25,722 nucleotides of DNA from a virus. Lineage: Duplodnaviria; Caudoviricetes. The DNA is taken from the IMG/VR virus record IMGVR_UViG_3300047308_000027, positions 1 to 25,722 of that record. One strand, 5' to 3'. The position numbers were made by a program, and so were the translations under genes. Below the pieces are notes generated by a model. That model made no database searches, had not been told where the DNA came from, and worked only from the letters and a program-made list of their open reading frames with translations. Shown here piece by piece: positions 310 to 6,079 of the stretch (its first letter is position 1; each line of letters begins with the position of its first letter).

Positions 310-316
310 CGAGTGA
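161..316 (+). CDS. Small hypothetical protein, 51 aa (MTDRNLTYELYY...IEKLEALPE); not in the ORF track
   Basis: Read by hand. GGAGG SD at 147-151, TAATG coupling upstream, and GTGA overlap with the polymerase start downstream. Confidence 0.7.
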   Translation: MTDRNLTYELYYTNYIDMENGDDVESIDYRSLIHILTELMSRIEKLEALPE

Positions 317-882
317 ACCTAATCTTTGACTTAGAAACAGACGGTCTTTACGATGATGTTACCTGTATCCACTGTATCTGCATCCATGACCTCGTTGCTA
401 AACAAACCTTTGTCTTTAACGATACGGGTAGTGAGCAGCCTGTGGTTAAGGGTATTCAGATGCTTGAAGATGCCAATCATTTGATTGGTCATAACATTAT
501 CAGTTACGACATACCTGTAGTACGTAAACTCTTTCCTTGGTTCAATACAGAGGCAACTCTTCTAGACACTTTAGTCTTGTCACGCATCTATCACGCTGAC
601 CGAACTAATGAAGACTACGAGAACAGGAAACCCAAATGGTCGCACATGCCCCTTCAGTTAATTGGCAGACATTCTCTTGAATCCTATGGCTACCGCCTTG
701 GGGAATACAAGGGTTCCTTTGGTAAGACTACCGATTGGAAAGAATGGAGCCAGGAGATGGAGGATTACTGCTTGCAAGATGTGCAGGTTACAACAAAGTT
801 ATGGCACCACTTTCTTACGAAGATAAACTTAGAAAATCAAAAGAGCGAAACAAGAAAAACTTTGACGCCAACAAATTGTTAG
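313..882 (+). CDS. gp5: DNA polymerase (family A, T7 gp5-like), N-terminal 3'-5' exonuclease part of a split gene
   Basis: ExoI FDLETDG, ExoII GHNIISYD, HSLESYGYRLG and ExoIII YCLQDV are present. GTG start with GGAGG SD. Polymerase-like sequence ends near ...TKLWHHF (~813) and the frame then runs into the insert. Confidence 0.92.
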   Translation: MNLIFDLETDGLYDDVTCIHCICIHDLVAKQTFVFNDTGSEQPVVKGIQMLEDANHLIGHNIISYDIPVVRKLFPWFNTEATLLDTLVLSRIYHADRTNEDYENRKPKWSHMPLQLIGRHSLESYGYRLGEYKGSFGKTTDWKEWSQEMEDYCLQDVQVTTKLWHHFLTKINLENQKSETRKTLTPTNC

Positions 883-1124
883 TAGACGCGTTTAAGCTTG
901 AGAAAGGTTGCGCCAAATGTGGGTATAAGGGTCACCCATCGGCATTAGATTTTAACCATTTAAATCCTGAGGATAAGTCAGCTGATGTTTCCACTCGTCT
1001 CCAACAGTGGTGCTGGGCTCGCTTAAGGCAGGAAATTGATAAATGTGAAATCTTGTGTGCTAACTGCCACCGAATCTACAGCTATGAAAATCACTATACC
1101 CGATTGGGTACAACTGGAACATGA
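801..1124 (+). CDS. HNH homing endonuclease inserted in the DNA polymerase gene
   Basis: CxxC (CAKC), ALDFNH..P..K and EIDKCEILCANCHR form a Zn-binding HNH pattern. The likely start is ATG 801; the ORF track extends it to 735. Confidence 0.85.
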   Translation: MAPLSYEDKLRKSKERNKKNFDANKLLVDAFKLEKGCAKCGYKGHPSALDFNHLNPEDKSADVSTRLQQWCWARLRQEIDKCEILCANCHRIYSYENHYTRLGTTGT

Positions 1125-2346
1125 TGTTGCAACTATCCTCACCGAACAAGAATTATCCGGCTGGGCATTTGATGAAAGAGCTGCATGGGAACTTGAATCA
1201 ACTCTCCGACGAGAGCTTGAAACACTTACTCAATTACTTCGCGGAAGGCATCCTTACGTTGCAGGGTCATCGTTTAATCCAAAACGACCTAACAAGACAC
1301 AGGGGTACTTCACAGGGTGTGAGTCAACGAGGCTAAAGGAATTAAATCCATCATCCCGTGATCACATTGCTTGGATCTTTCAAACTTTTTATGACTGGAC
1401 ACCCACTGAATTCACAGACAAAGGTAAAGCATCAATTGACGAAACAGTCCTCAAGGAAATTGGAACCCCAATTGCCCTTCAGTTCTTCAGGGTACTTGAA
1501 CTCACGAAACAGCTTGGACTCCTCAGTGAAGGTATCAATGGTTGGCTCAAACTCGTACGCAATGGTCGGATCCACCACAACTGTAGTGTCGCCACTGCCA
1601 CTCACAGATGTGCCCACCGTAAGCCCAACCTTGCCCAAGTTCCAGCAGAAGAAGAGTTTAGAAAATTATTCATTGCCACGCCAGGATTACAAATGGTCGG
1701 GGCTGACTTGGCTGGGATTGAGCTGCGGATGCTTGCTCACTACTTGGCTCGTTTTGATGGGGGTCGTTATGCCGACATCCTCCTCAACGACGACATCCAC
1801 CAAGTCAATGCAGACAAGATTGGCATCTCCCGTAGGGCCGTAAAGACTGTTACTTATGCATTTCTGTATGGAGCTGGTGATGAAAAGATTGGGCTATCCT
1901 TCGATCCCTTGCTTCCCAAGAACAAGGCAAGAAAGAGGGGTAAGGAAATTCGTCAAGCATTTATGGATGCTATCGACGGTCTGGAGACCCTAGTTACCAA
2001 GGTAAAAGAGAAGGCAGCTGGTGGGTACATCAATGCTATTGATGGTCGAAAGATCAGCGTAGACGGTACTCATAAGGCTCTTAATTACTTACTGCAATCT
2101 AGTGCTGGTGTTATTGCCAAACGCTGGATGGTAACGGCACACGAGACTATTAACTCAGCAAATATAAATGCACGACAACTAGCTTTTGTGCATGACGAAC
2201 TGCAGTTTGAAACTAAACCCCAATATGTAGATGACCTTAAGTTCGCACTCCTTCATGCAGCTAAGTCTGCTGGAGAGTATTACCAATGTAGGATCCCAAT
2301 CGAAGCAGACGCTAAGTCTGGGATCAATTGGGCAGAAGTGCATTAA
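1084..2346 (+). CDS. gp5: DNA polymerase (family A, T7 gp5-like), polymerase-domain part of a split gene
   Basis: LEHDVA, NPSSRDHI, PNLAQVP, motif A GADLAGIELRMLAHY, motif B RRAVKTVTYAFLYGAG and motif C FVHDELQ are present. The frame is open from 1027 and the first ATG is at 1084, so the start is uncertain. Confidence 0.93.
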   Translation: MKITIPDWVQLEHDVATILTEQELSGWAFDERAAWELESTLRRELETLTQLLRGRHPYVAGSSFNPKRPNKTQGYFTGCESTRLKELNPSSRDHIAWIFQTFYDWTPTEFTDKGKASIDETVLKEIGTPIALQFFRVLELTKQLGLLSEGINGWLKLVRNGRIHHNCSVATATHRCAHRKPNLAQVPAEEEFRKLFIATPGLQMVGADLAGIELRMLAHYLARFDGGRYADILLNDDIHQVNADKIGISRRAVKTVTYAFLYGAGDEKIGLSFDPLLPKNKARKRGKEIRQAFMDAIDGLETLVTKVKEKAAGGYINAIDGRKISVDGTHKALNYLLQSSAGVIAKRWMVTAHETINSANINARQLAFVHDELQFETKPQYVDDLKFALLHAAKSAGEYYQCRIPIEADAKSGINWAEVH

Positions 2347-2793: not shown

Positions 2794-3575
2794 GCTTGCT
2801 AATAGATGCAGACTTTATTGTCTACAAATGCTGCGCTTCAACTGAAACAGAGATTGACTATGGAGAAGATTTAATTGTTGTCACTTCAAACTTCTCAGAT
2901 GCCTACGACTTTGTGCAACGAGAGTTGTTCAAGATCGCACGTGACGTTGGAGTTTACGACGATACTATTCTTTTCTTTAGCGATAGCGTTAACTTCCGTA
3001 AGGGTATTGACCCTGATTACAAAGGCCATAGGAATCGTAAGAAACCTTGCGGTTATAAAAGGGTCATCAATGCGTTGAAGCTGGACTACCAAGTTGTTCA
3101 GTTGCCTACGCTTGAGGCTGATGATGCTATGGGTATCTGGGCTACTAAAGAGCCTGGCCATATCATCTGCTCCCCTGATAAGGATATGAGACAGATCCCT
3201 GGAGACTTGTATGACATGTCTACTGGAGTTGTCACAATCACCATAAAGGAAGGCTTCAACTGGCACTTGATTCAAACCATGGCTGGTGACCAGACCGATG
3301 GTTATGCAGGAGTTCCTGGCATTGGTATTAAGAGGGCTGTAGCTCTACTTGATTCAGATGGCTACACATGGGACACCGTATTACAAGCCTTTATTGATAA
3401 GGGTCTAACTGAAGATGATGCTCTTCGGAATGCCCGACTAGCAAAAATTCTTCAGAACGATGACTATGACCACAAACTCCAGCAACCAATCTTTTGGACC
3501 CCCACCTCCTCCAGTGATGGAGTTGACAGTGGAACAGAGCTTCAAATTGAGGAGACTACAGGATCTGCTGCCTAG
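2790..3575 (+). CDS. gp6: 5'-3' exonuclease (T7 gp6-like, PIN/FEN fold)
   Basis: LLIDAD, NFRK...YKGHR, LEADD, SPDKD and GDQTDGYAGVPGIG (H3TH) motifs. Confidence 0.93.
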   Translation: MSLLIDADFIVYKCCASTETEIDYGEDLIVVTSNFSDAYDFVQRELFKIARDVGVYDDTILFFSDSVNFRKGIDPDYKGHRNRKKPCGYKRVINALKLDYQVVQLPTLEADDAMGIWATKEPGHIICSPDKDMRQIPGDLYDMSTGVVTITIKEGFNWHLIQTMAGDQTDGYAGVPGIGIKRAVALLDSDGYTWDTVLQAFIDKGLTEDDALRNARLAKILQNDDYDHKLQQPIFWTPTSSSDGVDSGTELQIEETTGSAA

Positions 3576-3750
3576 TGCTGACAAGAAGGACATCATCACA
3601 GTCCTTATGGCTTTACAGCATCAAAACTTTGTACTCTCTAATTCAATCTCTAACCTAGTTAAAAAATGGCCATTACCAACATCACAGGCCCCAGCTACTA
3701 CAAACGTGGGCAAATCCAAGTTTGGGATTTCATCAGAGACCAAGAGCTGA
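3517..3750 (+). CDS. nblA: NblA-like phycobilisome degradation protein (possible N-terminally extended form from 3460)
   Basis: ELTVEQSFKLR...LQHQNFVL...LVKKW matches the NblA L(S/T)xEQxF two-helix pattern, and the size fits. It overlaps the exonuclease 3' end. Confidence 0.7.
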   Translation: MELTVEQSFKLRRLQDLLPSADKKDIITVLMALQHQNFVLSNSISNLVKKWPLPTSQAPATTNVGKSKFGISSETKS

Positions 3751-4254: not shown

Positions 4255-5645
4255 TGTCTGTACCACAAAAACAACTTATCGCTCGTACTGGACGGGTTCA
4301 ATCTTGGATTGATGATCCAACCAGCCGTCTTCCTGTCTCCTGTACTGTCTTCGTTGTGGAAGATGAGATGGAGGGGCCTAATGGTATTGAAGCTAGCTGG
4401 CGTTTTGCTAGCCATGCTCTTCGCTTTGGAGCTGGGTGTGCCATTCACTTAACCAAGCTTCGTGCTAAGGGGCGTGAGAATGGTAAGGGAATGGTTTCTT
4501 CTGGTCCTGTCTCCTTTGCCAAGATCTACTCAACACTAAATGAGATCCTCCGTCGTGGAGGACACTATAAGAATGGAGCTATTGTATGTCATCTTGATAT
4601 TAGTCACCCTGATATCATTGAGTTTGTCAACGCTAGCCGCGCTGATCTGCCTTGGGTCAAGCGTTGCGTCAACCTTACTACTCATAAGTGGGGTGAAGCA
4701 ACCAACCAAGTAAAAACGGCAGTGCTTGCCGCAATTGCAAGGGGTGACGTATGGCTAAACAAATCTAGAGTAGACAAAGATGGAAATAGAATCTACGGAA
4801 ATGTCTGTCTTGAAGTTTACCTGCCCTCACGAGGCACTTGCTTGCTTCAGCACGTCAATCTGGGTGCCTGTGACATCGAAGACATCGAACCAGCTTTTGT
4901 TGCTGGTATGTCCGAGTTGTGTGCACTCCATTCGAAAACAGGTGTCGGTGAATCGGGGGAGTACCTAAGCCCTGAGGTTGACCGTCAGGTTGGTCTTGGG
5001 ATGCTTGGTCTTGCCAACCTTCTTGGTCGCTATGGAGTGACCTATGAAGCCTTCGGAGAAGCCCTTGAGGATCTCCGTGGCAATGAACCATATGAGCGGA
5101 CTGGGGCACATGTACTCGCTACTAAACTACAACGTGGAATTGAAGCTGCTGCAGAGGTGGCTCGTTATAGCGGGATGGTACGTGCATTTGCAATCGCACC
5201 TACCGCTTCATGTTCGTACCGCTACACCGACGCACTGGGCTTCACAACAACACCGGAAATTGCTCCCCCGATCTCTAGGCAAGTGGACCGCGATAGCGCC
5301 ACTTTTGGGGTTCAGTCTTTCAACTACGGCAATGTGGAGATTGCCAGTGAGGTAGGTTGGCAAAATTACAAGCGAGTAGCTGATGGTGTTATCCGCCTGT
5401 TGGATAAGACCGGGCTGTTCCATGGCTATTCTTTCAACTCTTGGTCTGACGTAGTTACTTACGATGAAGCCTTTGTTGAAGATTGGTTAGCTTCACCGCA
5501 GACCAGCCTTTACTATAGCCTCCAAGTTATGAGTGATACGCAAGACAAGACCAGTGCTTATGCCGGTCTTGAGGAAGCCGATATTGATTCGTACTTGGAG
5601 GACATTTTGAATGAATCTCCAATTACTTGTGATTGCGGCGAATGA
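4254..5645 (+). CDS. nrdA: Ribonucleotide reductase large subunit (compact cyanopodovirus class I type)
   Basis: PVSC, NVCLE finger loop (NxCxE), IAPTASCS, SLYY tyrosine dyad typical of class I, and C-terminal CDC. There is no room for an ATP cone. Confidence 0.9.
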   Translation: MSVPQKQLIARTGRVQSWIDDPTSRLPVSCTVFVVEDEMEGPNGIEASWRFASHALRFGAGCAIHLTKLRAKGRENGKGMVSSGPVSFAKIYSTLNEILRRGGHYKNGAIVCHLDISHPDIIEFVNASRADLPWVKRCVNLTTHKWGEATNQVKTAVLAAIARGDVWLNKSRVDKDGNRIYGNVCLEVYLPSRGTCLLQHVNLGACDIEDIEPAFVAGMSELCALHSKTGVGESGEYLSPEVDRQVGLGMLGLANLLGRYGVTYEAFGEALEDLRGNEPYERTGAHVLATKLQRGIEAAAEVARYSGMVRAFAIAPTASCSYRYTDALGFTTTPEIAPPISRQVDRDSATFGVQSFNYGNVEIASEVGWQNYKRVADGVIRLLDKTGLFHGYSFNSWSDVVTYDEAFVEDWLASPQTSLYYSLQVMSDTQDKTSAYAGLEEADIDSYLEDILNESPITCDCGE

Positions 5646-6079
5646 ACCCCATCAAGAAAATACTTAATGCCTTAAAGATTGAAAAGAAACCAAAGCCTCT
5701 TGATTATTTTGGTCCTGGCTATTCCAGTGAACCTCAACCTTCTTTGCCTGGCTACCCAGCTGGGCTTCAACCAGTTGTACCTGGCAATCTAAAGCTGATT
5801 GGTAGGCCAAGGGTTAAAGATGGAAACAAAACAGCTACTGTCCGTTCAGCTGGTCAGCTAGATGAAAGAGATGGGTTGGAGACAGTTTACCCAACTGTCG
5901 TAAATGGAAAGCTTGTAAGTCCTGAAGAAGGATGGAAGCATTACCTAAAGACTGGAGAACATATGGGTAAGTACGCTAATTGGCAAATTGGTGAGGAGGC
6001 CGGAATCTCCATACACAATGAAGAGCAACGGCGTTTAAATGCTGACCTTAAAAAGAAACTCAAGTCAACAGGAAAATGA
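5642..6079 (+). CDS. Hypothetical protein inserted between the RNR subunit genes
   Basis: ATGA overlaps at both ends (5642-5645 and 6076-6079). It has a Pro-rich N-terminus and a globular-looking C-terminal part (GNLKL..RP.V...TVRS...YPTV..G...HY.KTGEHMG). Confidence 0.8.
   Translation: MNPIKKILNALKIEKKPKPLDYFGPGYSSEPQPSLPGYPAGLQPVVPGNLKLIGRPRVKDGNKTATVRSAGQLDERDGLETVYPTVVNGKLVSPEEGWKHYLKTGEHMGKYANWQIGEEAGISIHNEEQRRLNADLKKKLKSTGK

Follow-up and report, generated by a model that had tools for sequence, protein, structure and literature searches.

Clade-B cyanopodoviruses encode their family A DNA polymerase (PolA) in two pieces, a 3′–5′ exonuclease (exo) gene and a polymerase (pol) gene, and in several other phages an endonuclease gene lies between the halves of a split gene. 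We describe here a locus at which the two arrangements come together. It lies in a stretch of 25,722 nt (the window) of IMG/VR record IMGVR_UViG_3300047308_000027 (record completeness 57%), which on the basis of its gene content and best matches (S-CBP1, S-CBP3, S-CBP4, and DSL-LC07) we assign to a T7-like cyanopodovirus of clade B. The locus consists of separate exo and pol frames with a free-standing gene for an HNH endonuclease between them.

The closest described system is the split PolA of clade B itself, as represented by S-SBP1, P-SSP7, and S-TIP37. In the part of their paper accessible to us, Czernecki et al. (2023; PMC10201439) attribute the break in S-SBP1-like PolAs to gene fission, argue against frameshifting, and model the two products as a heterodimer. 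The split is annotated in P-SSP7 and S-TIP37 and has been used as a clade-B character (PMC12695635, accessible portion); the GenBank notes of these two phages, like the portion of PMC3350473 available to us, leave the choice between a frameshift and a split undecided. The window resembles these phages in the polymerase family, the break point, the separate exo and pol open reading frames (ORFs), the position of a start that lacks a Shine–Dalgarno (SD) sequence, and a predicted heterodimer. It differs in that the genes treated in PMC10201439 overlap by ~40 nt in different frames, whereas in the window an HNH gene, of which the accessible part of that paper makes no mention, fills the overlap and sits on the old pol start, and the start of pol is new.

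Endonuclease genes between the halves of split genes are known from more distant systems. In Aeromonas phage 25, seg43(25) is a free-standing endonuclease gene between the split-polymerase halves 43A and 43B, which co-purify and are active; it possibly invaded a gene that was already split (PMC2988022, accessible portion). In that case the polymerase is of family B, the endonuclease is of the seg rather than the HNH type, and a related phage has an untranslated spacer, whereas at our locus the empty allele has a dual-coding overlap in place of any spacer, and the independence of the split from the insert is much clearer. According to the same portion of that paper, mobE in Aeh1 nrdA and mobA in T4 gene 39/60 are, as in the window, intronless HNH genes between two polypeptides that reassemble, but the genes they interrupt are continuous in relatives, whereas the relatives of the window are already split; nor are bypass signals of the gene 60 type conserved at our locus. 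Fractured split-intein genes (Dassa et al. 2009; PMC2677866, accessible portion) likewise place an endonuclease between the halves of a phage DNA-metabolism gene. Unlike them, the window has no intein halves, its pol begins five residues before the conserved Pro, and its exo tail is unconserved. Finally, I-PfoP3I is an HNH enzyme encoded within the gene for DNA polymerase of the T7-like cyanophage Pf-WMP3, but it is borne by a group I intron that is spliced (PMC3428280, accessible portion), whereas no intron was detected in the window. Since a split PolA and an endonuclease between polymerase halves were both already known, the locus does not represent a new principle; what appears to be newly described is an HNH family within the overlap of an already split PolA. 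We found no description of an HNH gene at the exo/pol junction in the literature covered, outside which lie subscription papers and supplements that may mention one, and the accessible portions of PMC4646655, 10.1101/325100, and PMC8557907 do not describe the element.

The Polymerase Is Split With and Without the Insert

An earlier interpretation of this DNA from its letters alone (the sequence-only reading) took the HNH endonuclease to be the cause of the split. A comparison with 85 related loci, namely five cultured phages and the best 80 of 476 IMG/VR matches, does not support this. Only five of the 85 carry the HNH gene; the remaining 80 are insert-free and yet are split at the same HF/PxW junction. 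Because so many loci are split without an insert, the split is, on this comparison, older than, or independent of, the HNH gene. The frame break that the sequence-only reading had mentioned in related cyanopodoviruses is thus borne out and is, moreover, published (PMC10201439, accessible portion).

The architecture of the empty alleles is highly regular. The spacing from the Phe to the Pro codon is 8 nt in 79 of the 80 insert-free split loci and 11 nt in the other, with pol in the −1 frame. Each of the 52 distinct empty junctions has a start codon (ATG in 26, TTG in 25, and GTG in one) 13 nt upstream of where the Phe codon ends, and in 45 of them exo and pol overlap by 40 nt. The annotated pol starts of DSL-LC07, S-TIP37, P-SSP7, S-SRP01, and S-SBP1 all fall at the position equivalent to 801 of the window. 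Five clade-A phages, meanwhile, have a single continuous exo-pol ORF with a seven-codon linker. No carrier of the HNH gene was found on a single-ORF polymerase among the five clade-A records examined, and the polymerase tree cannot order the events. Locus L125 (S-CBP42) has an otherwise single-ORF polymerase, itself not annotated, whose frame changes at ~1190–1200 within the exo domain, around residues 72–74.

An HNH Gene in the Former exo/pol Overlap

Scans with Pfam and PHROG identified RNase_H_2, DNA_pol_A, and HNH domains at the locus. The exo gene extends from 313 to 882 (plus strand, as are all features given below for the window), begins with GTG, encodes 189 amino acids, and ends TGT-TAG. 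Its residues D6, E8, D66, Y152, and D156 are invariant across 38 homologues, and its conserved part runs to about I171, after which an 18-residue unconserved tail is read through the HNH gene. The pol frame, which shares the reading frame of exo, is open from 1027 to 2346, and the pol gene (1084–2346) would specify 420 residues of a family A polymerase of the clade-B cyanopodovirus type (Pfam DNA_pol_A, E = 3e-39), in which D208, K254, Y258, D371, and E372 are invariant across 37 homologues. The HNH gene (801–1124), which encodes 107 amino acids from the ATG at 801 to a TGA, overlaps both, sharing 82 nt with exo and 41 nt with pol. The sequence-only reading had placed these three frames, and TGT codons at 877–879 and 1054–1056, correctly. 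The HNH assignment rests on a strong PHROG match (E = 7.5e-28), the Pfam HNH score being just below the cut-off (20.3 versus 21.4 bits); a PDB sequence search with the HNH protein returned no matches. Residues C37, C40, H53, C86, N88, C89, and H90, metal ligands among them, are invariant in four carriers. Purifying selection acts on each of the three genes, dN/dS being 0.09–0.18 for exo, 0.08–0.12 for pol, and 0.09–0.10 for the HNH core.

Altogether we found 15 distinct carrier junctions (14, including the window, plus L148 at a contig end), with inserts of 273–414 nt. The nuclease core of the HNH protein is conserved among them, with an N-terminal part that is Cys-rich in some and of a basic helical form in others. 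The HNH frame is open in 13 of the 14 full-length alleles. In every carrier with an exo side except L144, HNH begins at the ancestral pol ATG. This codon (801–803), which corresponds to the start of pol in all of the distinct empty alleles, is thus present in the window but opens HNH rather than pol, and exo and pol no longer overlap. In the carriers exo keeps the pattern F-x-x-x-hydrophobic and stops 6–22 codons past the Phe, while pol keeps a short x-x-hydrophobic-P-x-W start. As each gene retains a remnant of the overlap, the old dual-coding segment has been duplicated, with one copy for each gene. The exo copy in the window (811–825) encodes the helix end F167-x-x-x-I171; the F+4 position is Leu in 51 of the 52 empty alleles and hydrophobic in every carrier having an exo side. 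L092 shows the duplication best: its exo tail (HKYL) and its pol start (IPQIPEW) are each similar to those of empty alleles.

Two carriers depart from this pattern. L077 has an HNH frameshift at a run of A's (~3085–3095), seen in one contig only, which could reflect either decay or an assembly error. L144 (1230–1560) has a full exo tail, an HNH gene that opens on a separate ATG close to where exo stops, and an old pol start that is now a dead-end ORF of 14 codons; its pol probably starts at a GTG, and it is possibly an independent insertion.

A Probable Replacement Start for pol

The likely start of the pol subunit in the window is an ATG at 1084–1086, which is formed by the Tyr-Glu codons (TAT-GAA) of the HNH gene. 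An in-frame start no more than 13 codons from PxW, with no stop between, is present in 14 of 14 carrier alleles (ATG in 12, TTG in L050, and GTG in L144), a count made up of L148 and 13 other alleles, among which L145 is not included since it nearly duplicates L030. As background, a usable ATG occurs in 190 of 961 same-frame 13-codon windows (0.20). In ten alleles one particular pair of HNH codons, located four residues past CANCH (Y-E, Y-D, H-E, or F-E), builds the start, and in all ten the first codon of the pair (Tyr, His, or Phe) ends in T; the four alleles without the pair have another start nearby (N-E, Y-A, H-A, or R-V). For comparison, TAT accounts for 88 of the 175 Tyr codons of pol and for 11 of the 25 of HNH, and both free-standing HNH homologues with Y-E use TAC.

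The surroundings of the new start were analyzed in 12 alleles, which for these tests (SD, codon match, and folding) excluded L086, a near copy, and L157, which has no exo side. In ten of the 12, the new start has less structure than 77%–99% of local windows, and in the other two than 37%–39%; the context of ATG 1084 in the window is unstructured (98th percentile). An SD match is absent at the ancestral and the new pol starts alike. In the carriers the HNH stop falls 20–50 nt downstream of the new start (41 nt in the window), much like the 40-nt overlap of the empty alleles, and re-initiation would therefore be possible. ATG 1084 is thus likely to be a conserved replacement start for the pol subunit. 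That the HNH ATG is the ancestral pol start, and that ATG 1084 appears as its conserved replacement, had both escaped the sequence-only reading.

Distribution and Mobility of the HNH Gene

We built a pol tree of 79 rows (14 carriers, 60 empty alleles, and five clade-A phages) from alignments with the first 20 residues removed (quick LG+G4). The window pol is nested among empty split alleles as the sister of L006 (100*), apart from the single-ORF clade A. The carrier or empty label needs at least eight changes on this tree, and monophyly of the carriers is rejected (p-AU 4.5e-68). Carriers and empty alleles form close pairs (the window and L006, L138 and DSL-LC07, L157 and L054), and, conversely, sister HNH genes are found on distant polymerases (L122 with L138, 95/86; the window with the L030 group, 97/95). 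A single origin of the HNH genes within pol is not rejected (p-AU 0.165). The distribution of the HNH gene, as these trees depict it, is patchy and lateral, with cognate empty alleles.

The sequences flanking the insert are consistent with co-conversion. Against L006, the closest empty allele, identity per 30 nt falls from 30 through 28, 27, and 23 to 17 going into the insert and recovers from 19 and 20 to 26, 30, and 30 coming out of it. The probable tracts lie approximately at 754–813 on the exo side, where identity drops, and at 1099–1170 on the pol side, where 19 and 20 of 30 positions beside the insert are identical and 26–30 of 30 beyond it. Dips in identity at the junction were seen in four close carrier/empty pairs.

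Carriers were also sought more widely. Pattern scans of metagenomes gave 26 matches, of which ten were carriers, one was an HNH gene without pol, and 15 were unrelated, as were L121 and L162; since the patterns demanded CxNCH and PxWV, other insert families could not appear. Of 24 loci from a search with the HNH protein, 20 lie outside a clade-B polymerase. Among cultured phages, when 50,697 phage records were searched by blastn with the insert, four short unrelated matches resulted, and tblastn revealed no cyanopodovirus with a junction HNH among the best 30 of 547 and the best 40 of 643 matches.

Homologous HNH genes occur in other settings. In L099 (2270–4710) one abuts or overlaps the 5′ end of another family A-like polymerase gene, and in L090 and L102 they abut or overlap the 5′ ends of primase-like genes (all named by inspection); the family may therefore favor the starts of replication genes. 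Synechococcus phage S-RIP1, which has been cultured and belongs to clade B, has an empty junction and a related HNH gene at 34978–35274, ~2 kb downstream of its pol start, and it is possible that this gene was the source of the junction HNH.

Predicted Assembly of the Two Halves

The products of 1084–2343 and 313–879 were predicted to form a complex with a score of 0.82, the best control scoring 0.00. The mark used was reached by 116 of 157 solved pairs and two of 215 mismatched pairs, and is roughly applicable here given that our own alignments were used. The runs agreed in at least 84% of contacts, and the partners had pLDDT values of at least 82. The predicted interface comprises pol residues 1–24 and exo I171; pol I5 touches I171 in the model, and the two ATA codons that specify these Ile residues thus stand for two different residues.

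Interpretation and Alternative Explanations

We consider it highly probable that the window encodes a family A polymerase of two chains, likely translated separately, together with an intronless HNH gene, likely a homing endonuclease, in the former overlap. Ribosomes would start pol at 1084 without an SD sequence, as at the ancestral start, perhaps by re-initiation after terminating at the stop of HNH, which lies 41 nt downstream. The HNH protein would nick or cut empty alleles near the junction, and its gene would be copied into them by recombinational repair, carrying 50–70 nt of flank. Its own allele would be protected from cutting because the site is interrupted.

Several points weigh against this interpretation. 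ATG 1084 has no SD match (anti-SD pairing +0.1 kcal/mol), as the sequence-only reading had remarked. The F-E pairs of free-standing HNH homologues end in T in five of six cases. The carriers are related, and the 14 alleles therefore represent fewer independent events; moreover, the start position was chosen after four of the carriers had been inspected. Junction dips also occur in at least three of 11 empty/empty controls (L001/L029, 19|20; L020/L001, 20|23; L046/L055, 22|30), which makes the evidence for co-conversion suggestive only, and the pol tree cannot separate gains from losses. The halves of a split gene may, in addition, pass the complex prediction through their likeness to solved single-chain polymerases, which limits that result to a statement of compatibility.

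A tentative extension, which we think rather doubtful, is that the arrangement is one of translational addiction. The HNH gene would hold the old pol start and carry the new one in its own 3′ end, and pol would be made only by way of complete translation of HNH. Nonsense or frameshift decay of HNH would therefore be selected against even without homing. The preponderance of open HNH frames (13 of 14) and a dN/dS near 0.09 fit this idea, and the frameshift in L077 (possibly an error) and the use by L144 of its own HNH start count against it.

Among the alternatives, one is that the HNH gene of a two-chain polymerase is not a site-specific homing enzyme but arrived once by illegitimate recombination and is transferred passively or serves a phage function. 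In keeping with this are the failure to reject one origin of the in-pol HNH genes, the mosaicism of these phages, the dips among empty alleles, and the free-standing homologues beside primase and other polymerase genes. We nevertheless regard it as unlikely in view of the repeated carrier/empty pairs on nearly identical polymerases, the short flank exchange centered on the insert in four close pairs, the joining of variable N-terminal domains to a conserved nuclease core, and purifying selection on a gene that is missing in 75 of 80 relatives (the best 80 of 476 IMG/VR matches). It is scarcely credible that we are dealing with a polymerase pseudogene or with an insert that is an assembly artefact. 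Some cyanopodovirus clades lack any polymerase (PMC12695635, accessible portion), and the one PolA found in the record could, at 57% completeness, have a second copy. Both halves, however, evolve at a dN/dS of 0.08–0.18 with intact catalytic residues. Misassembly is excluded by independent contigs: one from run X3 covers 314–2499 including the insert and differs from the window at 144 letters, one from run X2 covers 714–1197 with the insert, and in IMG/VR locus L086 the same site is occupied by an HNH protein 96% identical to that of the window. The 15 distinct carrier junctions likewise speak against an artefact.

The remaining alternatives would yield a single polypeptide or a spliced message. 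Ribosomal bypass of the T4 gene 60 type, with take-off in the exo tail and landing on a matched codon before PxW, has the following in its favor. Of the 14 carriers having both sides, 12 have pol in the frame of exo; the codon before P is matched among the first six codons of the tail in four alleles, those of the window (ATA), L030, L050, and L077; and in the window and L086 the TGT next to the stop occurs again 15 codons before P. The pair of ATA codons at 823–825 and 1096–1098, to which the sequence-only reading had pointed as a seamless join, is real in the window allele but is not a conserved feature: matches occur in four of 12 alleles versus 17 of 132 cross-allele comparisons, somewhat above chance at two positions that are both constrained to be hydrophobic, and L092, L122, and L138 lack any match to the last six codons. 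Furthermore, ATA is followed not by a stop but by 18 sense codons, and in none of 12 alleles does the codon immediately preceding the stop have a match within six codons of P. Matches farther away would add 14–44 foreign residues and are missing in six of 13 alleles; the TGT pair of the window would add 36 residues and is not conserved. The gap is 273–414 nt, as against 50 nt in gene 60 (PMC5009743, accessible portion), a join at ATA would leave four linker codons rather than the seven of single-ORF relatives, and the two Ile residues are distinct and touching in the model. Bypass would also leave the conserved new start codon unexplained, and we judge it very improbable; of the two options raised by the sequence-only reading, recoding is not supported and the two-subunit enzyme is, the insert-free relatives being already split and a new start being present in all 14 alleles. 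More improbable still is that the insert is removed from the mRNA through self-splicing of a very compact intron with a core overlapping the HNH ORF. Group I introns that bear an HNH gene are indeed present in polymerase genes of T7-like cyanophages (Pf-WMP3; PMC3428280, accessible portion), and folding of the whole insert gives z < −2 in two of 12 alleles. Against this, an Rfam scan of 600–1400 to E 10 gave three chance hits and no intron match, no non-coding sequence is to spare, the synonymous sites of the HNH core are as diverged as those of pol (pS 0.73 versus 0.71), the window has a folding z of −0.28, and exact removal would merely restore an already split allele. Against a split intein stand the in-frame stops, the lack of any intein family in Pfam and PHROG scans of either half, and the lack of room before PxW. 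The sequence-only reading had likewise dismissed both intron and intein.

For the two-chain interpretation, the carriers amount to a natural experiment on whether the clade-B cyanopodovirus polymerase is made by frameshifting or as two chains. Frameshifting is difficult to square with junction inserts of 273–414 nt, with stop codons in the frame of exo, and with a new start codon in all alleles, which therefore support true fission. The carriers would also illustrate a splicing-free route by which a selfish endonuclease can enter a conserved site in an essential gene: a dual-coding overlap is unzipped, the downstream start is taken, and a new start is supplied from codons of the endonuclease itself. 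In practice, DNA polymerase marker amplicons across the junction would be lengthened by such alleles or would miss them, and in annotation the alleles are easily taken for pseudogenes.

Other Features of the Window

A scan of 150–1300 for promoters and terminators gave results at chance level (two found versus 2.5 expected, and two versus 1.0). The exo gene contains at ~595–660 a patch that diverges sharply from L086 and from runs X3 and X5 (33 of 60 positions identical to L086 amid ~93%), which suggests a recombined segment. Between the genes for the alpha and beta subunits of ribonucleotide reductase is an ORF of 148 amino acids (5633–6079) without a Pfam or PHROG match. A second nuclease gene, of the endonuclease VII family, overlaps the 3′ end of pol (2333–2659); as it is found in L086 and has no match in L030 or L088, it is possibly another mobile endonuclease. 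Finally, we note that an NblA-like ORF (3460–3750; Pfam NblA, E = 2e-5) overlaps the 3′ end of the 5′–3′ exonuclease gene, an arrangement described for clade-B cyanophages (PMC12695635, accessible portion).

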